From: a virus | Taxonomy: Duplodnaviria; Caudoviricetes | Direction: 5' to 3' (one strand) | Virus record (IMG/VR): IMGVR_UViG_3300048848_000290 | Span: 1-53,060 of that record | DNA: 53,060 nucleotides | In this document: piece by piece, positions 4,471-47,533 of the stretch | Position numbering within the stretch: the stretch's first letter is position 1 | How the letters are laid out: every line of letters begins with the position of its first letter | The notes under the pieces: generated by a model | What the model was told of the DNA's origin: nothing | Databases searched by the model: none | What the model saw: only the letters and a program-made list of their open reading frames with translations | Position numbers and translations under genes: made by a program

Positions 4471-4495
4471 GGAACTGATTCGCGCGACGGGCATT
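4471..4495 (+). promoter_or_regulatory. sigma-EcfG/RpoE2-type promoter motif
   Basis: GGAAC-N18-TT (-10 GCATT), intergenic. Confidence 0.5.
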
Positions 4496-4502
4496 GAATT
4501 GT

Positions 4503-4580
4503 CGTCGCGAGGGCAAATCCCCGTCCCCATTAGAACGTTCGTCGCCCCACGAACACGCTCTCGCGACGCCCTCCCCTTAA
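4503..4580 (+). ncRNA. Candidate structured small RNA
   Basis: CGTCGCGAG (4503-4511) pairs with CTCGCGACG (4560-4568), enclosing hairpin GTTCGT-CGCCCC-ACGAAC; C-rich single-stranded parts; begins about 8 nt after the promoter motif. Confidence 0.35.
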
Positions 4581-4919
4581 CGCGCTTATCCCAGTGAAGC
4601 GCTTCGGCTTGCCGACTTCTTTCGGGACTCTATTTCCTCTCTATGAGCGACATCCCTCCCCCCACTGTCGCTGTTGGCGACGACAAGCGGCACCTGTTCT
4701 GCCAGATGGCGATCGAGATCCCTTTGCAGGATCTAATCCAGGCTGCAGTAAAGGCCGGATGGGACGCCGAGCGTTGCAGAACCTAAGCCGCCTGGGTGCA
4801 ATACACGGTTTGCCTTTCATAGGCGCGCGCCAGAGCCAGAGCTTGATCGAATGACTTAATTGCGCAAACGTAGGCTATATCTTACCATCAGCGGCGCTTT
4901 TGCTAAGAGAGTGACTTAG

Positions 4920-5807
4920 ATGTTAAGTACTATTAGACAAAAAGGGATCGGAGGCTTTTGGTCTGAAGGTAGATTATCTGCCTTGGAAAGGGCTTGCATA
5001 CAATCATACCTCAATTTGGGCCTCAGTTATACAATATTCTCATACGGCCCGTTGGGTAATATACCGGATGGCATTTTGGTCGAAGACGCAAATAAGATAG
5101 TTCCTCATTCGATGAGGCAGAGGATCATATATAACGGAAAACCTGACTTGTCGCACTTTTCGGATCTTTTCAGATTTGAAATGATCAGTCAGAGGGATTT
5201 GGTGTGGCATGATTTGGACGTAATGCTAATCGCAGATAAGCCGCTGCCAGAGTATAACGATATCATCGTCAGAGAGGAGCAGGGCGGGATCAATGGAGCA
5301 ATACTTTATGTCTCTGACACAAAAATTATCGATTATTGCTTAGACGAGATACATAAACTGCTGGACCGAGAGCTCACATGGGGCCAGACGGGACCGAGAT
5401 TGCTTGTGGAAGCAATCAACAAATCGGGGCGCCAGATAAACACTTATAATCATGAATATTTCTATCCAATAGAGCATTACGACATATGGAAAGCATTCCA
5501 TCCTGGATATTACTCGTTCTGCAAGGAAAAGTGTGAGTCCGCACTGACCATCCATTTATTCAACAATATTTTAAACAGTATCGGGATGTGGAAAGATATG
5601 GCACCCCCAAAAGGTTGCTTCATGGATGAGCAACTTGAAAAAATGGATCTGCTCCGGCTCTTTAGGGATACCTACCCTGAGAAAGTCATGACTTCTATTT
5701 TGGAAAATTTTCAATATCGGCAAAATGGCAAGGCGCTCGGCATTAAAACAATTATTCGGGAAATCGCACCAAGCATTTATCGTACCTACAAGCACTATCG
5801 AAGATAG
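4920..5807 (+). CDS. Glycosyltransferase, alpha-1,4-GT/GT32-like (DxD)
   Basis: SHFSDLFRF...WHDLDV (DxD)...INGAIL...WGQTGPRLL...FYPI motifs; visibly AT-rich relative to flanks. Confidence 0.8.
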   Translation: MLSTIRQKGIGGFWSEGRLSALERACIQSYLNLGLSYTIFSYGPLGNIPDGILVEDANKIVPHSMRQRIIYNGKPDLSHFSDLFRFEMISQRDLVWHDLDVMLIADKPLPEYNDIIVREEQGGINGAILYVSDTKIIDYCLDEIHKLLDRELTWGQTGPRLLVEAINKSGRQINTYNHEYFYPIEHYDIWKAFHPGYYSFCKEKCESALTIHLFNNILNSIGMWKDMAPPKGCFMDEQLEKMDLLRLFRDTYPEKVMTSILENFQYRQNGKALGIKTIIREIAPSIYRTYKHYRR

Positions 5808-5976
5808 AATTTGGCGAACAAAATTGCTGGTTCGGCGCCTCGATGCTGGTCTCGGTCTCCTCGAAGGGCATGTTGCTCCTCGTCAATGTCTGGAGATGCA
5901 AATCTGCGACCCAGGACTCTAGAGGTTCGGCGCGCTTCGGAAAGCGCTGAGAGAATCTGGATTAGACGGCGCCCCG

Positions 5977-6001
5977 AAGAAAGGCCCGCCGAAGCGGGCT
6001 T
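5977..6001 (-). terminator. Rho-independent terminator
   Basis: Minus strand AAGCCCGC-TTCG-GCGGGCCTTTCTT. Confidence 0.6.
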
Positions 6002-6307
6002 AGACGATCTCCTTCCCTCGCTCGTCCATAGGATGGAAATGCATAACACCTGCAGCCTAGTCTTTGCCGAGGTCATTCTCGCCAAATTTCAATCCGCCAG
6101 CCTGCTGCGTTAAATCAGCGACGGGATGATTGCGCGGATATCCTGCGAGCTTGTTGACCGCGCGGCTACGGCCGGCAAATACTATTCGACGTTTAGCCAC
6201 TTTGGATCAGCTACGCCTTTCGCCCATCCTTCGATGTGCTGGCATGACATGGCGGAGTAATCGGTTCATCGTCACGAAAGTCATGTCTAAAGCAAAGGAG
6301 GAATGCT

Positions 6308-6544
6308 GTGATGTCAACGAAGTTGCTGCAGATTATCACTCTGAGCGCGGGGATGGTCCTTGCCGGGACGGGCTTCTCGGCGAGTTATGCGTGCGGAGCC
6401 GGCGAGTGTGAACCGCCGCCTGAAACCTCCAAAGGCAACAACGGCTGGGGACAGGAAAAGAACCAAGGAACGAACGACGGGACCAACGCTGGTAGTGACA
6501 ATGGTGGCACCGCCGCTTCCAAGACCGCGAGCACCGACAGGTAA
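6308..6544 (+). CDS. Small secreted Gly/Asn-rich protein
   Basis: Signal-peptide-like N-terminus, CGAGEC and KGNNGWG motifs; AAGGAGG RBS. Confidence 0.7.
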   Translation: MMSTKLLQIITLSAGMVLAGTGFSASYACGAGECEPPPETSKGNNGWGQEKNQGTNDGTNAGSDNGGTAASKTASTDR

Positions 6545-7294
6545 ACCCGCGACTGCTTCGGCGGCGTGGCATCGCGACGCCGCCGATTCCATCTGACCCA
6601 GGCGGACCGATTCTCCGGGAACAACACTCAGTAGGTTGTTCAACTGGGAGGCGCCCCATATACTGAGCACCGTCAGGAGAATTATGAGGATAAGGAGCGC
6701 GATTTTCGGCTTTTTCTTCATCCTCTCGAACTAGCTCCCCATGTCCCACTTGCAATAGGACTAAAGGCCGGGCGCACGCAGCTACCCCTGAAACTTCATC
6801 CCGAGTTTGCAAGCAGCGTCAACGTCTGCTCCTCGTCACGTCGCGAGCGATGAGCAAGGTGGCGGTTTCTCCGTGGACATAATTCAAGCGCCACCATAGC
6901 CTCGGCCGTGAACGCGACCATTATTGAAGTGCCATCCGAGGCGTTTCACCTAATCGGCTGCAGCCAGGTTTTTCGATCCGGCATGATGTCCCGAATATGA
7001 AAGAAAGGCCCGCCCGTTTGTTCGTCGCCCACGAACCCACTCGCGCGCGCCCCCTCACCTCAGATGCGCCAATCCGCCACACTGCATTAGCTTGCGCTCA
7101 TGGGTGCCGCCCGCCATATCGACGCCGCGGGCGCTTCGCCGGATACTCTCCTATCCGCGTGCCCGTCGCCCGATGCAGGGATCACAAGAGGCCTGCGTCG
7201 GGCTCCTTTCGGCAACCTGCGGATCGCTAATATTGCGGATAACCTGGTGCTAGTTCACGGGTAGAACGCCGACCTGACTCTGGAATAGCGGACG

Positions 7295-7319
7295 GGAACC
7301 TTCCTTGCCGCGTTCGGTT
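7295..7319 (+). promoter_or_regulatory. sigma-EcfG/RpoE2-type promoter motif
   Basis: GGAAC-N18-TT (-10 GGTT), 23 nt before ATG 7343. Confidence 0.65.
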
Positions 7320-7342
7320 GGGTAAGCCAAAAGGAGAGGACA

Positions 7343-7621
7343 ATGACCAGCAGAATCACCACCGCCTTGATCTTTAACCTTTGCCTCGCTCTTCCCGCCG
7401 CAGCCCAACAAGGCGGAACCTTTACGCCGGACACCACGAACATGCAGGGAACCAATTCAGGTGGCCCAGTGGGCTCTCAAGCGATCGAACGGCCGAAGAA
7501 TGCGATACCCAACTCGGTCGGCAAAGCCGGGCAGGATTGCCAGAAGATGGCGAATACTGTTTCAGGTGAGCGGCCGTCGACGTCCAATCAGCAGGAACAG
7601 CAGCCGCAGCGAAAGTGTTAG
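7343..7621 (+). CDS. Small secreted low-complexity protein
   Basis: Sec signal ending PAAAQ; AGGAGAGG RBS; two Cys. Confidence 0.7.
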   Translation: MTSRITTALIFNLCLALPAAAQQGGTFTPDTTNMQGTNSGGPVGSQAIERPKNAIPNSVGKAGQDCQKMANTVSGERPSTSNQQEQQPQRKC

Positions 7622-7640
7622 AACCCGTAGCGCGATCTGT

Positions 7641-7755
7641 TCAATCCGGCACCCGATAAATTTCGGACGTATCATCCGGATCGCGAAGCCCCTTGAATGG
7701 CGCAAACCGCAGCTTCCCGTCGCTCGTCCATGCGCGGTATTTCAGCGTGAGACGG
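7641..7755 (-). pseudogene. C-terminal remnant of ATP-dependent (LigD/LigC-type) DNA ligase
   Basis: KYRAWTSDGKLRFAPFKGLRDPDD resembles the ligase OB-fold C-terminal motif; no catalytic domain upstream. Confidence 0.65.
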
Positions 7756-7766
7756 TAAGACCCTAG

Positions 7767-7791
7767 GGAACAGTCCTCTCGGGAGACCGTT
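7767..7791 (+). promoter_or_regulatory. sigma-EcfG/RpoE2-type promoter motif
   Basis: GGAAC-N16-CGTT, full consensus, upstream of ORF 7831. Confidence 0.7.
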
Positions 7792-7830
7792 AGGAGCCGC
7801 GAATTTCTCCGACTTAACCGCTTGGAGTGA

Positions 7831-8037
7831 TTGGGTTTGAAAGAATACAAGGTCTATATCGAGGTCGCCGGTCAGAAGGTGCTAGATAGAAGCCGGATTA
7901 AAGAAACCGATCTGCTGATCGCGATCTCCGGCTGTTACAAGGCGAAATCTCCAAAGATAGTGATCGCTCACGCCATCCTGCAGGGCGGCGCGTATGTTGA
8001 CCCACCGTTCCGTATAAGCCTGACCAAGCTCGACTGA
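7831..8037 (+). CDS. Small hypothetical protein
   Basis: 68 aa, TTG start with GGAG RBS and upstream promoter motif. Confidence 0.5.
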   Translation: MGLKEYKVYIEVAGQKVLDRSRIKETDLLIAISGCYKAKSPKIVIAHAILQGGAYVDPPFRISLTKLD

Positions 8038-8251
8038 TGGCGCGCTTCACCGATAGGATGTTCGGTCGTTGAGTATCGTTACAACCACTGGGTCATGCGC
8101 GTCCGCCAGTCGGTCGAGAAATAGACGTCGGCGACATCGTCCCCATTAGAACGAGTTATAGACTTGATGCAATGATCGGAAGTGCGAAATAGCAGTTGCC
8201 ATGTGCCCGGGCGGGTACCATTGAGTGCATCCAGTGAACAGGTGCCCAAAG

Positions 8252-8286
8252 GAAAGCCCGCGTCAATCCCCGGAGGCGCGGGCTTT
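8252..8286. terminator. Intrinsic terminator hairpin (possibly bidirectional)
   Basis: AAAGCCCGCGTC...GGCGCGGGCTTT between convergent genes. Confidence 0.55.
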
Positions 8287-8391
8287 CGCAGCCGGGGCTC
8301 TTCTCAGCCCGACCCATTCCCCGAGCTTAAGCCTGTTGGGCCAGAGCGATCAATTCCATCAAAGGGAGTATTGCAAGACGCCGTATAGACG

Positions 8392-10326
8392 TTAATGGAT
8401 GGCTGCCGCAAGCATTGCCAAAACGTCGTTCAACTGCTTCTGGCTGAACGGTTTAGCCAACCGGGTCAAACCGGCACCCTCGCTGCCAGGTAGTTCGGCA
8501 TATCCCGTAGCAAGGACCACTTGGATCGCTGGATATTGCTCGGCAATCTGTTGCGCCAGTTCCGCTCCTGTCATCTGAGGCATGGCATGATCCGTGATGA
8601 CGACATCAGGACACGGTCCCTCTCGCAGAAGCCGGAGCGCCTCTTCTCCCGAATTCGCCTCGAGCACCTTGTGTCCAAGATCTTCCAGCATCAGCACGGT
8701 GTTCATCAGCACAAGGCTATCGTCGTCTACCGCCATGATCGTAAGGGGAGGAACTGAAGCGACTGACGTTGTCTCAACGGCGGGCTCAGGCGGCGCGGCA
8801 GCGTCCGCCACAGGAAGCCAGAGCTCCGCGGTGGTACCCTGGCCTTTGCTCGACTTCATGATCAGGCGGCCCCCTGACTGAGCCATCAGGCCCTGCACCA
8901 TCGAAAGCCCCAGTCCGGTCCCCTTGCCGATTCCTTTCGTCGTGAAGAATGGCGTGGTTGCCTTTTCGAGCGTTTCTGCGTCCATTCCTTCGCCTTCGTC
9001 CTTGACCGAGAGGCAGACGTATTGGCCAGGCGGCAGATCCTGAACCTGTTTCGGTTTTAGGGCATGCTTCCGTGCAGAGATCTCGATCGTGCCACCATCC
9101 GGCATCGCGTCGCGCGCGTTCACCACCAGATTAAGCAGCGCGCTCTCGAGCTGGTTCGGATCCGACCATACAGGGGGCATCGAGAGTGGAAACGTCGTGC
9201 TGATCTCGATCTTGGGGCCGATCGATCGTTGCAATAGCTCAGCCATCTCTCTCACCAGCGCCGGTGCATCCACGGCTTCGAGCTTAAGATCCTGCTTGCG
9301 GGAGAAGGCAAGCAACCGCTGTGTCAACGAGGCCCCGCGCTTGGCGCCAATGATCGCGTTGTCGATTAGCTCGACAACATTCTGGCCTTCGAGCGCCCTC
9401 TTCCGAGCAATCTCTAGGCTGCCGAGGATCGCCATCAGGAGGTTGTTGAAGTCATGCGCAACGCCGCCGGTCAGTTGGCCAACGGCTTCCATCTTCTGCG
9501 CTTGGACGAGTTCCTGTTGGGCTTGTTCCAACGCCTGCTGAGCCTGCTTCTTTTCGGTGATATCGCGTGTGATCTTCGCGAAACCGATGAGTTTGCCATC
9601 GTCACCATGGATCACGTCGATGATAACGTTCGCCCAGAAGCGTGTGCCGTCTTTGCGAAGCCTCCATCCCTCCTTTTCAAAGCGACCGTCTCGCTTCGCG
9701 ATTTCTAATGCCTTCCTGGGAAGTTCTTCCGCCCGGTCCTCCTCCGTATAGAAGCGAGAGAAATGCTGTCCGATAATTTCGTCCGGCTGATAACCCTTGA
9801 TGCGCTCCGCACCGGCGTTCCAGCTCGCGACGTTCCCGTTCGGATCCAGCATATAAATCGCATAGTCCGTAACACCCTGCACCAGGAGGCGAAACTGCTC
9901 CTGGCTTCGCCTCAGCACCTCCTCGGCGACTTTTCGTTCCGAGAGATCCCGGGTGATCTTGGCAAAACCGAGGAGCTGGCCATGCTGGTCGCGGATGGCG
10001 TCGATGATGACATGCGCCCAGAAGCGTCCACCGTCTTTACGGACACGCCATCCCTCTGCTTCAAAACGCCCTTCGGCTTCGGCAGTCGCGAGTGCTCGGG
10101 TGGGAACGCCCGCTGCAAGGTCTTCAGGCGTGTAGAAACGCGAGAAGTGCTCTCCGAGGATCTCGGACTCGGTATAGCCTTTGAAACGCTGGGCGCCGGC
10201 ATTCCAACTTGATATCCGGCCTTCCGTGTCGAGCATATAGATCGCGTAGTCAGTGATGGCGTCGACGAGGAGGCGGTATCGTCCTTCATTGGACGCGGCC
10301 TGAAGCGTGGTGACATGCGCAGTCAT
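8392..10326 (-). CDS. Soluble hybrid sensor histidine kinase (PAS-PAS-HisKA-HATPase-REC)
   Basis: Two similar PAS/PAC repeats; H-box GQLTGGVAHDFNNLL; N/G1/F/G2 boxes (NARDAM, DEGEGM, PFFTTK, GTGLGL); receiver VDDD...TDHAMP...KPF; likely start 10326 after AAGGA. Confidence 0.93.
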   Translation of the reverse strand: MTAHVTTLQAASNEGRYRLLVDAITDYAIYMLDTEGRISSWNAGAQRFKGYTESEILGEHFSRFYTPEDLAAGVPTRALATAEAEGRFEAEGWRVRKDGGRFWAHVIIDAIRDQHGQLLGFAKITRDLSERKVAEEVLRRSQEQFRLLVQGVTDYAIYMLDPNGNVASWNAGAERIKGYQPDEIIGQHFSRFYTEEDRAEELPRKALEIAKRDGRFEKEGWRLRKDGTRFWANVIIDVIHGDDGKLIGFAKITRDITEKKQAQQALEQAQQELVQAQKMEAVGQLTGGVAHDFNNLLMAILGSLEIARKRALEGQNVVELIDNAIIGAKRGASLTQRLLAFSRKQDLKLEAVDAPALVREMAELLQRSIGPKIEISTTFPLSMPPVWSDPNQLESALLNLVVNARDAMPDGGTIEISARKHALKPKQVQDLPPGQYVCLSVKDEGEGMDAETLEKATTPFFTTKGIGKGTGLGLSMVQGLMAQSGGRLIMKSSKGQGTTAELWLPVADAAAPPEPAVETTSVASVPPLTIMAVDDDSLVLMNTVLMLEDLGHKVLEANSGEEALRLLREGPCPDVVITDHAMPQMTGAELAQQIAEQYPAIQVVLATGYAELPGSEGAGLTRLAKPFSQKQLNDVLAMLAAAIH

Positions 10327-10551
10327 CTGTATCCTTCCCGGAAAGATTGGGCTTTCCGTTGACGGACATGTAGACGCTCTCTGCCTCACGGCAAGAAGCC
10401 TGCGCCGAAACAACCGCCGACGATACGTTTAAGACACGCGCTAGCTACAGGTGGTGGTCCATGACAGTTTGATAAAAGCCTCCTCCAACCAGCGGGTAGC
10501 CGACGTCTGCTCGATCGGTACAATCAATCTGCTCAACAAGGACACACTGCA

Positions 10552-10695
10552 TTGAGTTCTACTACCGACTTCGTTGCCGAGTTGATCCGAGCTGCCAATC
10601 AAATCGATAAGCTGACGGCGCTGGAAAAGAACCGGCTGCTGGATCGTGCCGCCACGGTCGTGCGGCTAAAGCGGGGCTCTTTTTGTTTGGCGTAA
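10552..10695 (+). pseudogene. Truncated paralog of the 12234-12551 gene
   Basis: MSSTTDFVAELIRAANQIDKL...RLLDRA versus MSSTNDFIAELVRAANKVETL...RLLNRA; shares the 20-bp GGACACACTGCATTGAGTTC at the start. Confidence 0.7.
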
Positions 10696-10747
10696 AATCG
10701 ACGCCCTGCTTCTTCAACCCGTTTGGCAACTCGGTAATGTTCCAGGC

Positions 10748-11023
10748 ATGGACAAGGTCGCGCGAGACAATCTAATCGTGAAGATGCGTGCTGACGGGGA
10801 AACCATCCCAGCGATTGCGAAGGTACTAGGGCTGTCTGTGGCAATGATCAAAATCGTCCTGCAAAACCATGCCTATTGCATTGTTTCCACTCAGCCGCCG
10901 GAAGGCATGAGCATCCGGACAGCATGGCTCATTTGCCGGTCTCTTGGCACCTGGCCCACATCTGCCAACGCCGAAGAGCTTGCTCATAGGAAGCAGGCGT
11001 TCATGAGGGCACCCGGCACATAG
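10748..11023 (+). CDS. Small N-terminal HTH protein (possibly amber-truncated)
   Basis: RDNLIVKMRADGETIPAIAKVLGLSVAMIK HTH; frame stays open for 20 codons after the TAG. Confidence 0.55.
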   Translation: MDKVARDNLIVKMRADGETIPAIAKVLGLSVAMIKIVLQNHAYCIVSTQPPEGMSIRTAWLICRSLGTWPTSANAEELAHRKQAFMRAPGT

Positions 11024-11145
11024 CGGAAAGATTGGCGCGAGTTCGACGACTGGGTCATGCGAGGTTGCCAGTCGGGCGAGCAATGAAGGCAGCATTGTCC
11101 GGAATTGCCGCAAGTACTAGCTTGTTTCCCCAGCAAGACTGGAAT

Positions 11146-11400
11146 TTAGGTACTGCTTTCAAGCGAGAACGCATCTCGTATGGTCGCCAACAGCGCTGAG
11201 TTGGCTGCAGGAATTGTTACCCACCGATCCCGCCCCTGGATTCGCCGGCGAGCCTGATACCTGACAATCGGATACCCCATTATGGGAGTGCGCACCGACA
11301 TCCGGAAGACGACGCCGTCAATCATTCGTTCAACCATCACTGGGACCATTGCATCGCCTCTCTCCAAGGGAGTTTCTCGATCCATGTTCGCAGATGGCAT
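11146..11400 (-). CDS. Hypothetical protein
   Basis: 84 aa ORF; start uncertain. Confidence 0.35.
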   Translation of the reverse strand: MPSANMDRETPLERGDAMVPVMVERMIDGVVFRMSVRTPIMGYPIVRYQARRRIQGRDRWVTIPAANSALLATIRDAFSLESST

Positions 11401-11467
11401 TTAACAAAGGGGAAAAACCATTGGCACTTTGCTCAGCAGGAACTACCGGAATTGCACCCCAGGCCGT

Positions 11468-11695
11468 CTACGCTCGCACCACACGACCGATCTTGGTGAG
11501 GTAGGCGACAATCTCGTATTTGAGATGGCCGCGCTCCCCAAAAGCCTTGGACACAAGCTCGATGCGACGATAGGCTTCCTTATCGGTCGGATCGACCGGT
11601 TCCGCAACAACGTACCCAACGGTTCCGATCGCCTGGATATTGCTTCCCGCCTCGATCATGGCGGCCACAAACGCTTCAACTTCATCTTTGGTCAT
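11468..11695 (-). CDS. Hypothetical protein
   Basis: MTKDEVEAFVAAMIEAG... globular-looking 75 aa ORF. Confidence 0.55.
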   Translation of the reverse strand: MTKDEVEAFVAAMIEAGSNIQAIGTVGYVVAEPVDPTDKEAYRRIELVSKAFGERGHLKYEIVAYLTKIGRVVRA

Positions 11696-11824
11696 GTAAG
11701 AAGTTGAGCATATTTGCACCGCTGCGCAACCCTCAGATCTGATAGGCTCGCGGCCGTTTGTATTGCTACCAACGATCTGCCGTTGCGACTTGACTCCCGT
11801 TCAGAGGGTGGCAATGCTACTTCA

Positions 11825-12043
11825 ATGAGTCCCGACCGCTTCAACGAGTGCATGCGCCATATCCGCTGGACGCCCATCAATCTGGCGTCGGCGTTGCAGT
11901 GTGACCTGTCCTGGATCGAAGCGCTTGAAACGGGCAACGAAGAGGTGCCCGCCGGCCTTGCGGCTTGGCTGGAAACGCTCGCCCAAGCTCATGAAGCTCT
12001 TCCCCCACCCACAACTTACAGGCGCCAGAGGGCAGGACTTTGA
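11825..12043 (+). CDS. Small XRE-like HTH protein
   Basis: MSPDRFNECMRHIRWTPINLASALQCD...ETG..EVP..LA.WLE.LA. Confidence 0.7.
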   Translation: MSPDRFNECMRHIRWTPINLASALQCDLSWIEALETGNEEVPAGLAAWLETLAQAHEALPPPTTYRRQRAGL

Positions 12044-12237
12044 TTACAATGGCCGCGCCCCGCTTCGATATCCGCAAGGACAGCGACACCACGTGGGAGA
12101 TATTCGATACCACGACCGGCAGGACGGCAATTATTGGCGGAAAACCATACTTTGACCTGCCACTCGACAGCGCAGACACCCTCGCCGATTTCATGAACTC
12201 GGCAGGTATGGTGCCCGACAGGGACACACTGCATTGA
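12040..12237 (+). CDS. Hypothetical protein
   Basis: Coupled to neighbours by TTGA overlaps. Confidence 0.6.
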   Translation: MITMAAPRFDIRKDSDTTWEIFDTTTGRTAIIGGKPYFDLPLDSADTLADFMNSAGMVPDRDTLH

Positions 12238-12551
12238 GTTCGACGAACGACTTCATTGCGGAACTAGTCCGGGCCGCGAATAAGGTCGAGACGCTCCATG
12301 GCGAAGAAGCCCGCCGTCTACTCAACCGGGCGATAACGACGATCCGCGATATGCGGGAGACGATCGGGATACCTCGCAGCAACACGGCGGCCGACGCCGT
12401 GATCGACCTGCAGACGACAGCTGTGGCCCTCGGCTTGGGTAACCGATCGCCCGATCAGGTCAAGGCTGCCCTGCTGGATGCCGCCGGAATAATCCGGGAC
12501 CTGCATATCGTGCTGGACACGGGGACGGAAATTCAGATCGAGCAGAAATGA
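12234..12551 (+). CDS. Hypothetical protein
   Basis: 105 aa helical ORF, coupled to upstream gene; paralog fragment at 10552. Confidence 0.7.
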   Translation: MSSTNDFIAELVRAANKVETLHGEEARRLLNRAITTIRDMRETIGIPRSNTAADAVIDLQTTAVALGLGNRSPDQVKAALLDAAGIIRDLHIVLDTGTEIQIEQK

Positions 12552-12570
12552 AAACGGGGCCGAAGCCCCG
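12551..12570 (-). terminator. Rho-independent terminator
   Basis: Minus strand CGGGGC-TTCG-GCCCCG-TTTT just after the KilA-N gene. Confidence 0.65.
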
Positions 12571-12579
12571 CCATCACAA

Positions 12580-13353: not shown

Positions 13354-13600
13354 GGGATATAAATCCTTCTTTATATCGAGATGCGGCAGCTACGCTATTG
13401 ACACGACCCTGTGGATAAATACATCAATGCCACACGTGATCACGAGCTTACCGCCTGGTTAGCGAAAAAGGCCCGATTGGTGTGCAACCACCTTTCGGGC
13501 CGCCCTATTCATCGGATGAATCCGGCGAACCTGATATTCTTCCTCCTCGAAATCTGATTCGGCAAGTTGCGGTTCTCGTCTATCGACAACAATTTCTGCT

Positions 13601-14233: not shown

Positions 14234-14465
14234 TGGTCCTGCTGCCCTTTCAATGCGTCAGTACAAATTCGGTGGTCTGTTCTTGTTCCGGTCCCGTTGA
14301 CCATCGCGCCGACCGCTCCATGTTTCCGCTGCGGACGGAGACTGTAGACTCGACTCAGTATCGAATGAGAGTAGATTGTTGACATCGGCACCAACCGAAC
14401 AGGTAGGCGGTGACGACTGAGGGTTACTTTGTGCTCCCGCCTGCGGCGTGTCAGGAGGAGCGGTA

Positions 14466-14876: not shown

Positions 14877-14901
14877 GGAACCAAATCTTCGCGAGGTGCT
14901 T
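14877..14901 (+). promoter_or_regulatory. sigma-EcfG/RpoE2-type promoter motif
   Basis: GGAAC-N18-TT upstream of the 14993 ORF and DUF982 pair. Confidence 0.55.
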
Positions 14902-16404: not shown

Positions 16405-16777
16405 ATGACGTCCAGGCTGGATGATACCGGCGGCCGGTATCATCTGCGAGACTTGGCTTGTCTTGCAAAGGGCGTTTTCTGTCGAAGACGACGGATTTTA
16501 CGTGGCATCCATGGCGGTCGAAATATTGCGGGTGGCTGGTTTGGAACACGAGCCTCCGACTCTAGTTCTGCGGCATGGTTCTGACGGATGAGCAGCGAAA
16601 GAAGATATTCGAGGAAGGGAAGCAGGCGGCCGCCCTCGGAAAGAGCAGGCGATCTTGCCCGTATCTCGACGACGAGACCCCGGAGCGCATTTACATCTGG
16701 ATGGGCGGGTTCGACTCGGTCAGGCAGGGTCTGTAACGGGCTGTTAAGCGTAAGCCCTCCTAATGCTCTCGCGCCCG

Positions 16778-16802
16778 GGAACGGTGGCATACGACCGACG
16801 TT
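16778..16802 (+). promoter_or_regulatory. sigma-EcfG/RpoE2-type promoter motif
   Basis: GGAAC-N16-CGTT, full consensus, 25 nt before ATG 16828. Confidence 0.7.
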
Positions 16803-16827
16803 TGGCCTCGGCAAGTCGGAGAGGCAT

Positions 16828-18905: not shown

Positions 18906-18930
18906 GGAACCTTAGAAGCCCAAGGCTGTT
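18906..18930 (+). promoter_or_regulatory. sigma-EcfG/RpoE2-type promoter motif
   Basis: GGAAC-N18-TT (-10 TGTT), 24 nt before ATG 18955. Confidence 0.65.
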
Positions 18931-19955: not shown

Positions 19956-20406
19956 CGAAGACGGTCCCCACTTACCGGACACGGAGAGCGCGCCAGCCTT
20001 AGCTATCGGGCAATTTTTTACCAATCAGAGTTTCGACGCAGCCAGGAAAAAGGCGTCAATTTGTGGTCCCCGAAACCCCATGGCTTGGAAACCGGCCTGC
20101 ACCATCGGCTCTTTGCGGACGAACGTGCCGCTGTATTCGTAGGCGACTTGGGTGGCGCGGTCTTGTGTGGCGATCCACGCGTCAACTTGATCAATAAGGG
20201 CCGCCGCCCAGCACGCAGGCCAGTGAACCGCCGTTGGACTCCCTTACAAGTTGTGCAATATTTTAGCCGCTAAGAGACTGTTTGAGGGCTCGAACGGGAA
20301 AACGGGCGAGCCCTCTCATTTTTCTGAACCTGTTGTTCTAAATCGGGTTAAGGGCCTGCATCACGGCGGACCTACGCAGGCCCTTGCGCGGCGAGCTTCC
20401 CATTGA

Positions 20407-32064: not shown

Positions 32065-32307
32065 CTATTCCTTGCTCTGCAACCACTTCCAAAGATCGTC
32101 AGCCTCTGCGTTGGACATCTTGTCCTTGGCGCCGTTTGCCTTCGCATATCCATCGAACGCAGCCAGGAACTGCCACATCGACATGTCGTTGACCTGCTGG
32201 GGCGTGAACCCCATTGCGGCGCCAACCCCATAGATTGCCGCGAAACGGATCTTGCCGTTCGGGAGGTCATCTACTCGGCTGCTGGTGTTGGCGCTTCCGG
32301 CTCCCCC
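32065..32307 (-). CDS. Tail assembly chaperone gpT part (-1 frame extension; not in ORF track)
   Basis: Open -1 frame GAGSANTSSRVDDLPNGKIRFAAIYGVGAAMGFTPQQVNDMSMWQFLAAFDGY...KE* begins at slippery GGGGGAG (32301-32307). Confidence 0.7.
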   Translation of the reverse strand, partial: GGAGSANTSSRVDDLPNGKIRFAAIYGVGAAMGFTPQQVNDMSMWQFLAAFDGYAKANGAKDKMSNAEADDLWKWLQSKE

Positions 32308-37243: not shown

Positions 37244-37451
37244 CAGCAAATCCTATTCGTGTTTATGTTCGGGTGTTGTGGTGATGGCCTGGCAGGCGCT
37301 GCGGGTAATCTGGACTTCGCCTCGTGCTTAATGAGGATCATTGGCTATCTGCCTGAAAGGAGACTCTGCTATGGTTGCGGTACCGACCGGCGATGGCACG
37401 CCAGCCGGTATCTAACATCACCCCGCGATACGAGCACGAGGAGACGATTGC

Positions 37452-40575: not shown

Positions 40576-42273
40576 TCAGCCGACGACCAGCATCTGGTAT
40601 TGCGGCTTTCGCTTTGGTTCCGGGTTCCGGCTCATCACCGTGACCGCGTTGAAGAGCGCCATGGCGAGGTCGATCTTGGCGTCGCCAGCATTCTGCTTGG
40701 TGGCTCGTATGGCCGTGGCCGTCGGCTCGATCTTCAGGTTCGAGACGCACCACTGCATAAGGCCGGCACCCGAGTGGCGCAGCGTCCCGTTTGCGAGCTT
40801 CCGTTCCGTCGTCTTGATGGCGTTCATCAGCTGGTAGCCCTGCGGCACGCCGATCAACATTCCCTCTTCCTGTGTGACGCCGATCTCGTCGAGCGCCTCG
40901 ACCATCTCACCAAGGCCGGCCGGGTCGACTGCGACACAGGCAAGCAAGCCGGCGTCCTTGATCTGGGCGATGATGCCGACGATCTCCGAGATATCCGCCA
41001 GTTCGTCATCGACAATCGTCAGTTCGCCGTCGTTCTCGAACGTTTTGAGCTTCGTGGCGATGGACTGGCGCCGCTTCAGCACGCCGTGATGGCACCAGCC
41101 ATGAACCCAGCATAGCCACTCCCGCGTATTGCTGTGACGTCCAACGACCGCCAGTCCGAACAGGTCGTCGAGACCGCCCCCATCCAATCCCGGTACGATG
41201 ACGTCGCAGTTCGCAAGCAGATAGTCGAGCGTGATGATTTCGCTTGCGCGACCGTTCCAGAGGTCGGCGCCCGGCCACCTATTGGCGCGCAGGTTCATAC
41301 CGATCTCGACATTCAGGTGCTTTGCAAGGAACGTAGCGAGCGTCGTTCGATCGCCAGCCAGTTCCTTCGTCATTTCGTCCTGCAACCACTCCTGGCTGAC
41401 TGATCGACCGAGGTTTGGGTTGGTGACATAGAAGTTCGCCGGGTCTTCGTATGCCTTCGCCTTGATCATTTCGCGCGGAAACTCGTAGATCACCGGCAAG
41501 AATTTGCGGTTCTCTATGACGCCATCCCGGATGTTTCGGGCATAGTCGAGCTTGGCTTTGAACACGCCGGCCGGCGGCTCGTCGCTCTGCGTCGACAGCG
41601 TGATGATGAAACCTTCCGGCCGTGAGACCAACCCCCCTGTGGCTTCACGCAACATCGCATCCGCATTCGGCCGCTTGCCGAAGACCCAGAGCTCGTCGAT
41701 CAGTATCCGGCCGGACTTTTTCCCCGAGACCGTGTCGGTATCCGCGGCGACGACTTTCAAGACGGCATCGTTGCCGAGATGCTTAATCGTCCGAAGATGA
41801 TCCTGGACGACGAGGAACCCGCCTTCATCGGCGTTGGCATCCAGTTCCGGATCTGCGCGTACCATCGCGGCGGCCGGCTTATAGCTGTTCTGCGCGACCT
41901 CGATCGTTGGCGCCAGGATCAACAGCTCTTCATTATGCCGCCAGTTGACGATCAACGCCGTCAACATGATCGCAGCGGCGATGGTCGACTTGGTGTTCTT
42001 CTTGCTGATCAGCAGAAAGAACTCCGTAATAAGCTGCTTTCCCGTCTCTGCGTCGTAGGCGCCAAAGATGGCGGAGACGAAATCGAATACCCACTCGTCG
42101 CTCACCTCACCGAAGGTCGGTTGCCCCGGTAGATCGGTGACCTTTAGCGCTTTAAAGACGCTCAGCGCATATTCCGCCTCGCTCGAAAAAAGCGGCTGAA
42201 ACGGGATAAGGGATCGCCGCGATACGATCCGCTTGTCCCAGTCAGGACAGGCCGTCGTCCAGTGCAACGTCAC
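40576..42273 (-). CDS. terL: Terminase large subunit
   Basis: Walker A-like ISKKNTKST, Walker B ILIDE, NP.LG.S, GLDGGGLDDL nuclease motif, KIDL.MA. Confidence 0.93.
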   Translation of the reverse strand: MTLHWTTACPDWDKRIVSRRSLIPFQPLFSSEAEYALSVFKALKVTDLPGQPTFGEVSDEWVFDFVSAIFGAYDAETGKQLITEFFLLISKKNTKSTIAAAIMLTALIVNWRHNEELLILAPTIEVAQNSYKPAAAMVRADPELDANADEGGFLVVQDHLRTIKHLGNDAVLKVVAADTDTVSGKKSGRILIDELWVFGKRPNADAMLREATGGLVSRPEGFIITLSTQSDEPPAGVFKAKLDYARNIRDGVIENRKFLPVIYEFPREMIKAKAYEDPANFYVTNPNLGRSVSQEWLQDEMTKELAGDRTTLATFLAKHLNVEIGMNLRANRWPGADLWNGRASEIITLDYLLANCDVIVPGLDGGGLDDLFGLAVVGRHSNTREWLCWVHGWCHHGVLKRRQSIATKLKTFENDGELTIVDDELADISEIVGIIAQIKDAGLLACVAVDPAGLGEMVEALDEIGVTQEEGMLIGVPQGYQLMNAIKTTERKLANGTLRHSGAGLMQWCVSNLKIEPTATAIRATKQNAGDAKIDLAMALFNAVTVMSRNPEPKRKPQYQMLVVG

Positions 42274-42812
42274 TTGTTGTCGACCACCAGTTTCGGGCCA
42301 GGCCGCTGCGCGAATTTGCCACCACCCGCTGCCGCCGCAGCTGCTGCATCCTTTCGAGCAGCCTTTTTGCCTGAAGGTGCGGAAGCTTCCGACAGCGTCT
42401 TCAGCGTAGCGCTGATGTCCTTTAGCGTTTTTGCACGCTCGGCCAAGGAGATTGCCTTCAGCAAAGCCTGGCGGCGCCGGCTGTCGCTCTCCTCAGCACA
42501 GATCATGTCTTCGAGCTCACCATGCAGTGAAGTCACGGCGTCGAGCTCATCCATCATTCTGCCGGCAATGGCTTTGCCCTTTTCGGAAAGATCAGCGGGT
42601 GTTTCCACCACCTCGGTCAACCTCTCGACCCGCTCCCGTCGATCGAGATGCTTCGGCTGCGTTGCCCGGGTCCAGTTGTCAGCCTTGGCCCGCTTGTTGA
42701 TCGCCGTGTGGGAAACGCCGTACCACCGGGCGATATCGCGGACGCTCATGGCGCCTGCGCGGTAGTCCGTTTCAATGCCTTGCCAGTCGATGGGCTTATT
42801 TTCTTTTGCCAT
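42270..42812 (-). CDS. terS: Terminase small subunit
   Basis: DW..IE.DYRAG..SVR.IA..YGVSHTAINKRAK...W.R HTH; C-terminal GKKA..; coupled to terL. Confidence 0.8.
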   Translation of the reverse strand: MAKENKPIDWQGIETDYRAGAMSVRDIARWYGVSHTAINKRAKADNWTRATQPKHLDRRERVERLTEVVETPADLSEKGKAIAGRMMDELDAVTSLHGELEDMICAEESDSRRRQALLKAISLAERAKTLKDISATLKTLSEASAPSGKKAARKDAAAAAAAGGGKFAQRPGPKLVVDNK

Positions 42813-42925
42813 GGTTTCCACTCTGGTTTCCGGATGGAAACTCTCAGATGAGAAAAAATCTCTCGATGTGGGGGACGCGGGTCCGGCCGCCGAAGGGGTC
42901 TTTAGGTGGACATGCCCCCCCAGGG
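42813..42925 (-). other. Probable cos/packaging region
   Basis: Between HNH and terS; G7 run, GGACCCGCGTCCCC, GATTTTTT, and repeated GTTTCCA/GGAAACC boxes. Confidence 0.45.
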
Positions 42926-43155
42926 TCACCGTCTCGGAGGCGGTGGGCGATGCATCGGCGGGGTCGGGAACACCTTTGTCCACCCACTGCCGCATCATGC
43001 CACGGGTCGCCTCGACCGCTGTAAGGGTTCCACTGACCAGCTACGCCGCACTTGCATTCGAGCCTGACATCGTAGCTGAACAATCTGCGGAACTTGACTT
43101 GAGGGTCGGCACCACAAGGGCATGCGGCGATGACGGTGCGAGGCCGGTAGCTCAT
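42844..43155 (-). CDS. Small Cys-rich protein (Lar-like zinc ribbon), 3' end uncertain
   Basis: CPCG...ECKCG; runs into the presumed cos region. Confidence 0.35.
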   Translation of the reverse strand: MSYRPRTVIAACPCGADPQVKFRRLFSYDVRLECKCGVAGQWNPYSGRGDPWHDAAVGGQRCSRPRRCIAHRLRDGDPGGACPPKDPFGGRTRVPHIERFFLI

Positions 43156-43162: not shown

Positions 43163-43531
43163 TCACCCTTCCAAGGCTGACTTGCGCTCCTCGGCCTGGA
43201 TGAGGCTGTCATGGATGCGCTTGGTTACCGTCTCGATGTTGTTGATGTCCCAGAAGAGGGCCGGGTCACCGTGGTGCGGGGTCTTGTGGTTGGCGACTGG
43301 TGCGTTCGGATCGTTGCCGGTGCCCGCACATATCTCTCCGCTTCGCTGGCAGGTGTAGAGGTCTCGCTCGAAGGCCTGGCGCCTCAACCGTTCCCACCGC
43401 GGCGTCTTGTACCAGGCTCTCCAGGGCTGGGTGTTGCGGCGGTGCTGGTCCCGAGACTTCTCTCCCTGCATCCTGCCAACCAATGGCTTGATCGTTGCGA
43501 CAAGGGGCTTGATCGTCCTCACCTTGGCCAT
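43163..43531 (-). CDS. HNH endonuclease (packaging-associated)
   Basis: WY.TPRW..LR....RD.Y.CQ...VANHK.PH.GD..LFWD..N......HDS. Confidence 0.88.
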   Translation of the reverse strand: MAKVRTIKPLVATIKPLVGRMQGEKSRDQHRRNTQPWRAWYKTPRWERLRRQAFERDLYTCQRSGEICAGTGNDPNAPVANHKTPHHGDPALFWDINNIETVTKRIHDSLIQAEERKSALEG

Positions 43532-43626
43532 TGCACCGATATCCACTGCTGACGGGTCGTTCCTTGCCGAACCTTCTCAGCCCTCCGTGGTTGTGGACGG
43601 TCGGCACGACGTTCTGGAGGAAAGAC

Positions 43627-43827
43627 ATGACAGAACCCGCACACCGCAGCGTGATCAGGGAAATCACTGCTGACGGCTATCTGATCACCACAATCGAGAA
43701 TGGGAAGGAGATCCGAACGCGGCTCTTTACCGATCGAGATGAGGCTAACACCTACCTCGTAGAGGAACGTCGCCGAATGGGCTTGCCTGATCGAGTTCGC
43801 CCCACTCGCGCGGTCCGCCGCAATTGA
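43627..43827 (+). CDS. Small hypothetical protein (moron)
   Basis: GGAGG RBS; CGAAC-N18-TT at 43568-43592. Confidence 0.6.
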   Translation: MTEPAHRSVIREITADGYLITTIENGKEIRTRLFTDRDEANTYLVEERRRMGLPDRVRPTRAVRRN

Positions 43828-43988
43828 TCGTTGGCTTCAGAGGCAGCAGCCGCAGCTTGCGTTGGCGGCTGGCCAAACGCTCTCCTGCCAAGGCCTTCTG
43901 ATCACATTAACCATCCTGACGATCGATTGAACCTCTTCGGAACAGGCGAGGTATAAGCAATTAACCGTACCGTCAGGAGGAATTGCTT

Positions 43989-44231
43989 ATGAGCTTCGTC
44001 CTACAGAAGCACCAGCAACAAGTGCTCGACGCGGTCCAAGCCTATCGGTCGGAGATTGAAGAGATCGAGGCCCACGTCCGCATGAGGGCAATGTCCAACA
44101 ATGTTAGCGATTCTGAGCTGGCCTTGCTTCGACGTCTGAAGGACGAAAAATCCCAGATCCTTTACCGCTACGAAAACTTGGTTGAGGCCTTCAAAGCCGT
44201 GCTCGGAGACATCAACCTCGCTGCGGAGTGA
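43989..44231 (+). CDS. Small coiled-coil protein (moron)
   Basis: AGGAGG RBS; GGAAC-N17-TT at 43939-43962. Confidence 0.7.
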   Translation: MSFVLQKHQQQVLDAVQAYRSEIEEIEAHVRMRAMSNNVSDSELALLRRLKDEKSQILYRYENLVEAFKAVLGDINLAAE

Positions 44232-44256: not shown

Positions 44257-44281
44257 GGAACTTTGACGCGCGAAGCCAGTT
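44257..44281 (+). promoter_or_regulatory. sigma-EcfG/RpoE2-type promoter motif
   Basis: GGAAC-N18-TT (-10 AGTT), 8 nt before ATG 44290. Confidence 0.6.
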
Positions 44282-44289: not shown

Positions 44290-44454
44290 ATGAAAAACTC
44301 AGAACGCAACGCCAGCGCCCGCACGATCAGGTTCGTCCTGGCTATATTCGGCATCGCCGTTTTGATAACGGTGATATATTTGGTCCTGCTGATGCCGAGA
44401 GAGCCCCAGGAAGGTCAGACGCCACCGCACGCCATCAATCAAAGCACTCCATGA
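44290..44454 (+). CDS. 54-aa single-TM protein, probably leaderless (not in ORF track)
   Basis: MKNSERNASARTIRFVLAIFGIAVLITVIYLVLLMPREPQ... Confidence 0.55.
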   Translation: MKNSERNASARTIRFVLAIFGIAVLITVIYLVLLMPREPQEGQTPPHAINQSTP

Positions 44455-45190: not shown

Positions 45191-46204
45191 CTACGCAGAT
45201 TTAATTAATCTCAGCGTGCCATCTGGCGAGCTCGCATACATCTGCAAAGCGCCCTCCGGCAAGATTCCCCTAAGCTTATCGGCATATTCTGCCGCCACCC
45301 TGGGCTCATTGGCTGGGAGTATGGAACTCAGCGCTGTTCCAACATCTGTCAAAATATAAACCGGTATTGAGGGCGTGCCGTCATTATTCGAAAGTATCTC
45401 GTTACTCCCGTAGTCGATCGCAGTATCTTGGGGGATGGCTAAAGCCACACTGCCGAACGGCGAAATCCAAAGCTTCTTTCCCGCAGTGGTGGCCGCCGAA
45501 CCAAATAGTCTAGACTGGCCTCCAAATCCGGGGTCTACAAGCAAGCCAGCACCAACCAGTTTCAGGGTTGTGTTAAAATCCAAATCCGGGTTCATCAGCG
45601 GCTTGATCAAAACATCACCTACCTGATAACGCATGAGCGTTTCGAAAATCCGCGCGGTCTCACCATCCAGTTCATCTGTTGTACGTAATACCTTCGAACT
45701 GAAAGTCCCTGGTTTCCTGATTTCACCAGCTAGAATGCGACCCCACCGTTCTCTAAGTTGCTCGGTTGTTGCAGTTTCAGCATAGCCTTCAAATCGCCCC
45801 ATAAACTCCTCGCTTACGAGTTCGGGTCCCGACGCAGCCTGCTCATCGCTGGGAACATTCTGGCGTAAGTCTTCTACGGCCGCCCCGACAACAGCATCCT
45901 TGTTGATCTGGGCCTGCGCTATTTTCTTGAAATGGTTTTCGAATGCTCGCTTGGCGAATTCGTCGTCCAGCCCCATGCGCTCTACACCGTACTTTGCAGC
46001 AGCTTCTATCAAAGCGCGCTCTCCTTCAATGTGAGCGCGCCGCCGAGAGAGGCCCCCTTCGAGTAGGACATTGCCCCAGTCGGCGACATTCCCAACAAGG
46101 CGGTCGATTGCCGCAACAGTTCTACTTTTGGCAGCGGCTTTCACGCCAGTTTCCGTTATTTCGGCGGAAACAGATGTCTCAGTGTTCAGATGATCCTCGG
46201 CCAT
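45191..46204 (-). CDS. DUF2806-domain protein (moron)
   Basis: EFM.RF..YAE....EQLRERWGRILAGEIRKPGTFS; AAGGAGG RBS before ATG 46204; AT-richer. Confidence 0.8.
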   Translation of the reverse strand: MAEDHLNTETSVSAEITETGVKAAAKSRTVAAIDRLVGNVADWGNVLLEGGLSRRRAHIEGERALIEAAAKYGVERMGLDDEFAKRAFENHFKKIAQAQINKDAVVGAAVEDLRQNVPSDEQAASGPELVSEEFMGRFEGYAETATTEQLRERWGRILAGEIRKPGTFSSKVLRTTDELDGETARIFETLMRYQVGDVLIKPLMNPDLDFNTTLKLVGAGLLVDPGFGGQSRLFGSAATTAGKKLWISPFGSVALAIPQDTAIDYGSNEILSNNDGTPSIPVYILTDVGTALSSILPANEPRVAAEYADKLRGILPEGALQMYASSPDGTLRLIKSA

Positions 46205-46421
46205 GATCGGTCCTCCTTCCGGGATACGATCACGCACTGTCCGATTCTCTGCAACCAGTGATGCTAAAATAGATTGCGTCTTGCTCAAAGGACGCGCCCA
46301 AGCTCGCCTTGTGGGCCGGGAATAAGCGGAGCCGCCGGGTGCGATACAAGAATTGCCCGATGTTCTGAGCTACTTAGGACGCTTGGGTAATCAACATCGG
46401 ACAATATTTCGGATTGGGCGC

Positions 46422-46445
46422 TCGGGCCGCGACCGACCCGGCTAT
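46422..46445 (-). repeat. Hairpin element copy 1
   Basis: Minus strand ATAGCCGGGTCGGTCGCGGCCCGA, 80 nt after the nusG-like stop. Confidence 0.8.
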
Positions 46446-46525
46446 GGAGCCGGCGAGTATTCCATCGTCCGCCAGACGCTCCGCAAATCGCGATGAGGAA
46501 TAAATACCTTCTCCTCGAAAAACAA

Positions 46526-47083
46526 TCAAGTCGCCTCTAGCTGCTTCCTTTCGAATTCCACAGGCGTCATTCTCCCGAAAAGATCGAGCAACGCTGATAT
46601 TGTGCCACGCTCCGTGACTTCCTTGATGACCGCGCTGAGGCCAATGAAACATCCATCAGTAACGCGAAATTCGCCGCCTGTAGGAAAAGCTTCCTCAAGT
46701 TTCGCAATTCGCTGCTGCTTCGAATGTTCGAGCCGGTCGAATTCGCCGTTGATCTGGTCCGTATAGATCGCCTGTATCTCGTCTGGGTGGATCGCTAGCG
46801 GCTTCTCACCCCCCAAATACCGAACCACGTGATCCCGGATCAAATGCATCTTGTCACGGCTAATCGAGACAAACGCATAGCCTGGCAGCGCAGGATACTC
46901 CCGGGATCTGATCTTATGCGTCCGATGGTTTTTCACCTCCCAGCGCCCGTAGGGAACATAGCTGCGGAAGTAGACATCATTCCGCCCGCAGATCCGCTCC
47001 ATCTCGAAGGCTGCCCCCAACTCATCGCCTGGCATCACCTGGGCAACAAACCAGAACTCGAGTCCAGCGTCGAATATCTTCAT
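46526..47083 (-). CDS. NusG-paralog transcription antiterminator (NGN + KOW)
   Basis: WFVAQV.PG.E...PALPGY.FV; KOW G..FRVTDG.F.GL...I......LDLFGR.TPVE. Confidence 0.88.
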   Translation of the reverse strand: MKIFDAGLEFWFVAQVMPGDELGAAFEMERICGRNDVYFRSYVPYGRWEVKNHRTHKIRSREYPALPGYAFVSISRDKMHLIRDHVVRYLGGEKPLAIHPDEIQAIYTDQINGEFDRLEHSKQQRIAKLEEAFPTGGEFRVTDGCFIGLSAVIKEVTERGTISALLDLFGRMTPVEFERKQLEAT

Positions 47084-47460
47084 GCCTCGCTCCCGTACCG
47101 GCGAGCGTATTCCGAGTTGACCATGTCGACGAGGATATCAACCTCGTCCCAATCCGGCGCCGACCTGACATCGCCAGCGCTCTCGACGAGCGCGTTTAGC
47201 ATCTCCAAATCGTCAACTGACAGCTCGCGCAGGATCTGGCGGGAGAACTGCACCACGGTGCTGATATAGATGTAAGCCGCCTGCCCGCGCCCAAGGTCTG
47301 CAGGGATTTCCGAATAAATTTTGGCTGCGTCTTGAACCAGCTTGGGCTGTCCGCGCTTCGGCGTTGGCTTGGCTGTCTTCATCGGCTTTCCGCAGAAATA
47401 CGGACCTTGCGGCTGCGCAGGCACCGTCCGCCTCGACGGAAATTCGAATACATTGCTCAT
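47080..47460 (-). CDS. Hypothetical protein
   Basis: MSNVFEFP.. start typical of phage early ORFs; GAGGAG RBS; coupled to nusG-like gene. Confidence 0.7.
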   Translation of the reverse strand: MSNVFEFPSRRTVPAQPQGPYFCGKPMKTAKPTPKRGQPKLVQDAAKIYSEIPADLGRGQAAYIYISTVVQFSRQILRELSVDDLEMLNALVESAGDVRSAPDWDEVDILVDMVNSEYARRYGSEA

Positions 47461-47508
47461 CTCAGTGCTCCTCGAAATTGATGATTGAAAAGAATCCTCC
47501 CTGGACGA

Positions 47509-47533
47509 GGAACCGGAGGCTCTTCGCGGATTT
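47509..47533 (+). promoter_or_regulatory. sigma-EcfG/RpoE2-type promoter motif
   Basis: GGAAC-N18-TT upstream of the DUF982 gene. Confidence 0.6.

Follow-up and report, generated by a model that had tools for sequence, protein, structure and literature searches.

Predicted EcfG-type promoters precede small counter-oriented cargo genes in a prophage of a Sinorhizobium-like host

The stretch of DNA analyzed here, referred to as the window, is a 53,060-bp provirus from IMG/VR (IMGVR_UViG_3300048848_000290; Duplodnaviria, Caudoviricetes) with a CheckV completeness of 94%. Our analysis focused on small open reading frames (ORFs) on its plus strand that are preceded by the motif GGAAC-N18-TT, i.e. 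the sequence bound by EcfG (RpoE2), the sigma factor of the alphaproteobacterial general stress response. The first codon of the window is a stop codon and the last one a start codon, which indicates that the provirus was trimmed at gene boundaries. According to PHROG and Pfam scans, the phage backbone lies on the minus strand and comprises an integrase (51867-53060), a primosomal protein (49632-50360), a primase/helicase (47893-49845), a NusG-like antiterminator (46526-47083), an HNH endonuclease (43163-43546), the small (TerS, 42270-42998) and large (TerL, 40576-42273) terminase subunits, a protease/capsid fusion (38538-40553), the tape measure protein (29578-31722), tail fibres (20726-26775) and an endolysin (17885-18856). 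The large terminase shares 90%, 89% and 88% identity with those of prophages of Sinorhizobium medicae, a Rhizobiales isolate and a metagenome-assembled genome, which points to a Rhizobiaceae-type host. The window is best explained as an integrated temperate siphovirus-like prophage of a Sinorhizobium-like alphaproteobacterium, and we regard this explanation, jointly with the promoter reading developed below, as likely.

The accessory genes are found on the plus strand, where modules meet and in the arm that extends past the lysis genes. The G+C content (GC) is 0.50 at 4-6 kb, 0.53 at 44-46 kb and 0.57-0.59 at 14-20 kb, compared with 0.59-0.62 in the structural genes. Few phage-family matches and a lower GC characterize the left 8 kb; this arm also holds a plus-strand gene (4920-5807; GC 0.50) with a weak glycosyltransferase (Gb3_synth) match, and where the prophage truly ends on this side is uncertain. 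Neither Rfam nor tRNA scans of the window yielded a match.

Nine plus-strand sites of intergenic type share an exact GGAAC at -35 and the N18-TT spacing, and six of them have a -10 element of the form xGTT (7295, 7767, 16543, 16778, 18906 and 44257). We rate seven of the nine as strong and two as weaker candidates; the count of at least eight in the sequence-only reading that preceded this analysis was thus slightly generous. Each strong site ends 7-46 nt before a plus-strand ORF. In the left arm, the site at 7295..7319 (GGAAC-N16-GGTT) lies 23 nt before ORF 7343-7621, which encodes 92 aa with a signal-peptide-like N-terminus, and the site at 7767..7791 (full GGAAC-N16-CGTT) lies 39 nt before ORF 7831-8037 (68 aa, TTG start; 45 nt if translation starts at 7837). 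Two further sites are close together: an intergenic one at 16543..16567 (-10 AGTT), 7 nt before the ATG of ORF 16575-16736, and another full GGAAC-N16-CGTT at 16778..16802, 25 nt before ORF 16828-16992 (54 aa, hydrophobic N-terminus). The site at 18906..18930 (-10 TGTT) lies 24 nt before ORF 18955-19233 (92 aa, membrane-like), which is followed by ORF 19278-19955; this unit diverges from the endolysin gene. At the opposite end of the structural genes, the site at 44257..44281 (-10 AGTT) is located 8 nt before the ATG of ORF 44290-44454 (54 aa, membrane-like). Finally, the site at 47509..47533 (-10 ATTT) lies 37 nt before a DUF982 gene (47571-47831) and is flanked by the minus-strand phage gene 47080-47460 and the primase/helicase gene. 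A clear Shine-Dalgarno sequence precedes five of the seven ORFs, but not those behind 16543 and 44257, whose ATG follows the TT by 7-8 nt; this spacing would fit a leaderless geometry, with the ATG where the start site is expected. In S. meliloti, 171 leaderless start sites have been mapped, all of them at AUG (PMC3616915).

Four ORFs of the window exceed the gathering cut-off of DUF982 (Pfam: PF06169; 22.2 bits), i.e. 47571-47831 (69.2 bits), 15247-15534 (64.1), 15625-15891 (61.0) and 4153-4416 (41.2). The first of these also matches the solved DUF982 member 2kpq, an 'uncharacterized protein', with an E value of 1.2e-07. ORF 16575-16736 (53 aa) reaches 26.9 bits (E 5e-06) against the ribosome modulation factor family RMF (Pfam: PF04957), below the cut-off of 27.9; among the 12 relatives found, five have a precomputed PF04957 match and four are named ribosome modulation factor by their source. 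We therefore call this product, which stands behind an EcfG-type motif in a leaderless-type arrangement, RMF-like only. The usual group of RMF is the gammaproteobacteria, and a search of 32 genomes of the genus of G001 with the RMF-like ORF found no homolog. The remaining cargo products are small secreted or membrane-like proteins without a family match.

The two weaker candidates are located further from the next ORF. The site at 4471..4495 (-10 CATT) stands just after the DUF982 gene 4153-4416 and 147 nt before ORF 4643-4786 (47 aa). The site at 14877..14901 (-10 GCTT) stands 121 nt before ORF 15023-15166, behind which the DUF982 genes 15247-15534 and 15625-15891 follow. The placement of the sites between genes, as claimed in the sequence-only reading, holds for the excess as a whole, but 14877 is inside a possible minus-strand ORF (14672-15010), itself weakly scored. 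By eye, the same 11-nt word ending in TATATCG immediately precedes the start codon of both ORF 15247 and ORF 16144 (~15224-15234 and ~16133-16143) and could be another shared control element.

The eight exact sites listed previously (4471, 7295, 7767, 14877, 16778, 18906, 44257 and 47509) are all present on the plus strand at these positions; the list had, however, missed four on the plus strand (16543, 32166, 38882 and 40385) and two on the minus strand (14265 and 48322). Likewise, its two full-consensus sites (7767 and 16778) are correct, but the third one, at 32166..32190 (+), was overlooked. This site is located within the tail module, which is on the minus strand, and no plus-strand ORF belongs to it; since 0.46 full-consensus matches are expected per window, against the three observed, it needs no special explanation and is probably due to chance. 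On the minus strand, 14265..14289 precedes gene 13601-14233 (-) by 31 nt; this candidate was rejected, as its -35 element or spacing is not kept in L087, L078 and L079, and it is probably a chance or very recent match. The matches at 38882 (+), 40385 (+) and 48322 (-) were also rejected, being inside genes at background frequency (the first two in minus-strand genes). Of three near matches proposed earlier, two precede ORFs with good ribosome-binding sites: CGAAC-N16-GGTT at 43568..43592 (+), before ORF 43627-43827 with a strong ribosome-binding site, lacks the -35 G, a strictly conserved position of published sites, and GGAAC-N17-TT at 43939..43962 (+), before ORF 43989-44231, is one base short. 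The third, TGAAC at 20325, was rejected; it directly follows a terminator-like hairpin and faces the 3' end of a minus-strand gene further downstream. Plus-strand ORFs also occur inside the tail and head modules (31748-32056, with a signal-peptide-like N-terminus, and 37452-37850). No exact GGAAC-N18-TT match was found upstream of these two, so the counter-oriented cargo is not all on this promoter type.

Hairpins are found after four cargo units. A 13-bp GC-rich hairpin at 8252..8296 (free energy dG -25.2 for the 45-nt window) lies where the cargo unit 7295-8037 (+) and gene 8392-10413 (-) converge, in the gap that separates them, and another at ~16410 (dG -23.2) is also located in a convergent gap after a cargo unit. 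The hairpin at 20272..20328 (+; dG -24.0) follows ORF 19278-19955 and forms a terminator-like end of the 18906 unit, and a 10-bp hairpin at 47829..47873 (dG -20.0) separates the DUF982 gene from the convergent primase gene. A clear T-run is present only at the one near 20284.

In the whole window, GGAAC-N18-TT occurs 14 times, 12 times on the plus strand and twice on the minus strand. Dinucleotide shuffles of the window have a mean of 6.33 matches (sd 2.6), in agreement with the earlier estimate of two to three chance matches per strand, and one in 100 reaches 14. On the plus strand, the spacing N18 gives 12 matches and other spacings between one and nine. The enrichment becomes much sharper in non-coding DNA, which we delimited with a home-made gene caller (codon log-odds, ribosome-binding sites, greedy selection); this crude procedure leaves 8,962 bp in 56 segments. 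These segments contain eight matches on the plus strand and one on the minus strand, while none of 2,000 dinucleotide shuffles of them reaches eight (mean 0.59, maximum 5). When all 1,024 five-mers are placed before N18-TT in the same DNA, GGAAC ranks top with eight matches, compared with four for the runner-up. Within genes, the four to five matches equal the background of about five expected from the shuffle mean scaled to the coding share. Equal frequency inside genes and on the minus strand, which the sequence-only reading had named as the outcome speaking against it, is thus not what we observe: the excess is confined to plus-strand non-coding DNA. The spacers of the nine intergenic-type sites have no sequence in common, which argues that they are not copies of one repeat. 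Scans of the window for the sigma-70 consensus and for a simple terminator consensus both remained at shuffle level.

The motif itself equals a published one. In section 3.6 of Sallet et al. (PMC3738161), GGAAC N18-19 TT is given as the 'strictly conserved' RpoE2 (EcfG) binding sequence of Sinorhizobium meliloti, with such sites at 108 transcription units, and PMC4914127 reports the consensus GGAAC-N15/16-gcgTTt; the original assignment to the sigma factor of the general stress response is supported as far as the sequence is concerned. A CATT -10 element, as at site 4471, is present in the mapped rpoE5 promoter (Lang et al. 2018, Table 1, PMC6180224). As a positive control, nepR was found in all four related genomes examined, and the four main loci have divergent motif pairs (GGAAC-N18/19-TT) upstream. 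A phage-encoded sigma factor was considered and rejected: the window has no Sigma70_r2 match, and only a 14.5-bit r4-like helix-turn-helix occurs at 10775-10852. Since there is no sigma gene in the window, a host sigma factor must read these sites.

Several sites are conserved along with homologous cargo. In G065 (L040), the ATG of a 64-72% identical homolog of ORF 7343 is preceded by GGAAC-N18-TT at a distance of 24-25 nt (23 nt in the window), with a diverged spacer. In the same way, the ortholog of ORF 16828 in L078 (89% aa identity) retains GGAAC and CGTT 24 nt upstream and differs by substitutions in the spacer between them. ORF 18955 has weak N-terminal homologs in five of the 32 genomes of the genus of G001, all five with the motif 26-27 nt upstream. 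The 14877 site is kept only in the near-identical L081, and ORF 7831-8037 has no homolog in the compared loci. In four Rhizobiaceae-type genomes, the motif stands on the same strand 69-150 nt ahead of the domain in 13 out of 30 DUF982 genes, compared with none in antisense orientation and two downstream; several of the motif-negative genes are downstream members of tandem clusters. DUF982 consequently looks like a stress-regulon family.

The same bias is observed in related proviruses, which the sequence-only reading had suggested as a check. We compared 80 IMG/VR loci, recruited with the endolysin and amounting to 1.267 Mb; these relatives share structural or lysis DNA with the window but not most of the cargo. 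Of their raw motif matches, 59 share the strand of the endolysin and 163 are on the opposite (cargo) one; as unique 25-mers these are 44 and 106, and in 68 of the latter 106 the base before TT is G. In unique non-coding DNA (174,654 bp), N18 yields 83 matches on the opposite strand versus nine on the same strand, and N19 yields 61 versus 11; other spacings on the opposite strand yield 6-37, so that the peak at N18-19 is sharp. Once more GGAAC ranks first among the 1,024 five-mers (83 versus 39 for the next). After clustering of instances at no more than 25% mismatch, non-coding DNA contains 66 clusters on the opposite strand versus 16 on the same strand; inside genes the numbers are 53 and 50. 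At least one such site is present in 54 of the 80 loci, and at least three in 26. In 26 of 47 cases, the distance from the motif to the start of the called ORF behind it is 15-65 nt. The products of the downstream ORFs include DUF982, DUF6894, a receiver-domain protein and several unnamed small families. In the slot adjoining the endolysin (L115:9344-9727; L096:9301-9561, similar), different small ORFs stand behind the same motif, one a single-domain response-regulator receiver and another a member of an unnamed cysteine-containing family; one motif cluster at this slot has 14 members.

Taken together, we consider it probable that seven, possibly nine, plus-strand accessory units of this prophage carry promoters of the host EcfG/RpoE2 type, which belongs to group ECF15 of the extracytoplasmic function (ECF) sigma factors, i.e. 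GGAAC, 16 bases, and xGTT or xxTT. The identity of the motif, its enrichment, its placement and its conservation are observed here, as is the absence of a phage sigma gene. According to this model, stress or stationary phase in the lysogen would release EcfG from NepR via PhyR, and EcfG-RNA polymerase would start ~5-11 nt after the TT. The transcribed units would be short and self-contained, each made of a promoter followed by one, two or three small ORFs and in several cases closed by a hairpin, and their products would be DUF982 proteins, the RMF-like protein and small secreted or membrane proteins. Such units would behave as morons that either joined the stress regulon of the host or were brought along from it, and the same arrangement appears to be common in related rhizobial proviruses. 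The dispersed mini-regulon proposed in the sequence-only reading therefore stands with respect to motif identity, non-coding enrichment, placement before small counter-oriented ORFs and recurrence, but not with respect to its antisense part.

Several points weigh against this interpretation. Dependence on EcfG, the start sites and a benefit to the lysogen are deduced from sequence, and the presence of PhyR-NepR-EcfG in the host of this provirus is deduced from its relatives. Three of the nine sites have a weak -10 element (4471, 14877 and 47509). The motif is found within 220 nt of the homolog of ORF 4643 in none of six loci, and the RMF-like homolog in L083 is without it. All 'non-coding' counts, for the window and for the relatives, depend on the crude gene caller. 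A position weight matrix built from 17 host sites gives six matches in the window against a shuffle mean of 2.45 and a maximum of 7, and is not discriminating. In 28 TerL-centred loci, which share only the structural module with the window, there is no N18 peak, although after masking just 21 kb and 9 kb of non-coding DNA remained, which gives this test no power. Lastly, according to PMC6180224, the consensus of the S. meliloti sigma factor RpoE6 is similar to the ECF15 one, and the RpoE2 regulon includes 27 of the 40 RpoE6 targets; because of this overlap the motif alone does not uniquely fix the sigma factor that reads it.

This last point leads to an alternative in which the promoters are real but are read by another host ECF sigma factor, either a second ECF15 paralog (RpoE5) or an ECF26-type RpoE6 of overlapping specificity. 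S. meliloti does have two ECF15 sigma factors (PMC6180224), but the same paper reports only a single RpoE5 target, and the ECF26 -35 element is GGAATA rather than GGAAC. Moreover, the nepR loci of related genomes have the same GGAAC-N18/19-TT, and the spacing in the relatives peaks exactly at N18-19; we consider this alternative improbable. Chance clustering of a short degenerate motif could be suspected from its mere seven fixed bases and the modest excess in the whole window. It is effectively refuted by the intergenic shuffles and the first rank of GGAAC among five-mers, by the consistent orientation and distance to ORF starts, and by the replication in 80 independent loci with their sharp spacing peak.

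Another alternative concerns origin more than function. The cargo could be passive baggage, i.e. host stress genes captured with their native promoters, or, in the left arm, flanking host DNA; there would then be no selected phage-level regulon, and some sites may be silent. DUF982 and 18955-like genes indeed have the same promoter motif in host chromosomes, and the poverty of the left 8 kb in phage families, its GC of 0.50 at 4-6 kb and the cutting of the provirus at gene boundaries fit this view. But the sites at 16543, 16778, 18906, 44257 and 47509 are located between recognizable phage genes (lysis, tail fibre, HNH/TerS, antiterminator, primase), and the recurrence of the bias in 54 of the 80 related loci with different cargo argues for repeated retention rather than one accident. 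Captured promoters would, besides, still respond to EcfG, and as a replacement for the EcfG-type reading we judge the baggage scenario unlikely. The sequence-only reading had further proposed that plus-strand transcripts made under stress continue into the lytic operons on the minus strand, where as antisense RNA they would damp lytic transcription. In its favor, each cargo unit faces minus-strand phage genes in convergent orientation, 40 antisense RNAs of S. meliloti have an RpoE2-type motif in front of them (PMC3616915), and the full-consensus site at 32166 is antisense inside the tail module. Yet strong hairpins stand in the convergent gaps (~8252, 16410, 20272 and 47829), matches in lytic genes are at background in the window, in-gene clusters are strand-symmetric in the relatives, and 32166 is within chance expectation. 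Our results thus do not support this proposal, and we give it little credence.

A more far-reaching scenario is that rhizobial temperate phages systematically plug into PhyR-NepR-EcfG. EcfG-driven cargo – DUF982, RMF-like and small membrane proteins, in relatives even a single-domain response regulator – would then be selected for survival of the stressed lysogen, or for feedback that acts on the stress pathway or the choice between lysis and lysogeny, and DUF982 would be a stress-regulon family spread by phages. We regard this extension as doubtful, albeit less so than the alternatives above.

Two observations concern the provirus in general. 'Portal' PHROG matches fall on two separate minus-strand ORFs (34854-35882 and 36437-37249) with other ORFs in between, and the fused protease/capsid gene comes directly after the terminase; the head module may be unusual, or the portal gene broken. 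In a soil metatranscriptome, the single run that matched (0.06 share of words), ten short contig pieces fall on positions 1-20000. Contigs match 8489-10005, 14507-14695, 15582-15737 and 19696-19867, several of them without any difference, which indicates that the phage or a close relative was present in that soil sample; the contigs carry no start-site or strand information.

If the promoters work as predicted, the prophage adds a co-regulated gene block to the general stress response of its host. This would be a concrete case of mobile elements extending a sigma-factor regulon in soil and symbiotic bacteria, and it would flag DUF982, DUF6894 and an RMF-like protein outside its usual group as stress-linked families. 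In the literature searched, as far as the texts were accessible, we found no description of EcfG/RpoE2 promoters on prophage cargo and no link in print between the DUF982 family and an EcfG-type motif; in the accessible part of a preprint on a stress-response integrative and conjugative element, EcfG is cited only in the reference list. Host-regulated morons and EcfG promoters are both known; what is new is their combination, density and recurrence.

The sites follow the same rule as the RpoE2/EcfG regulon promoters, GGAAC N18-19 TT, often with a (c)GTT -10 element (PMC3738161; PMC4914127), and the motif is also found before nepR of related genomes. As in that regulon, where targets are mostly small proteins and 150 of 202 RpoE2-dependent genes are without predicted function (PMC3616915), the genes downstream are small and mostly lack a predicted function. 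The density differs: seven to nine sites, here predicted, in 53 kb, compared with the 108 units per S. meliloti genome in the text of PMC3738161 cited above. With respect to DUF982, the likeness consists of the four ORFs above the Pfam cut-off and the match of ORF 47571 to 2kpq. The S. meliloti genome measures ~6.7 Mb. Morons, or lysogenic-conversion genes, are self-contained: they are inserted between backbone modules, bring a promoter of their own and in many cases also a terminator. The cargo units resemble them in their position between backbone modules, their promoter motif, the absence of most of them from relatives that share the backbone and, at 4-6 kb and 44-46 kb, a lower GC. They differ in that several units of one prophage share a single predicted type of alternative-sigma promoter and so would form a coordinated set, and in that all strong sites are oriented against the backbone.

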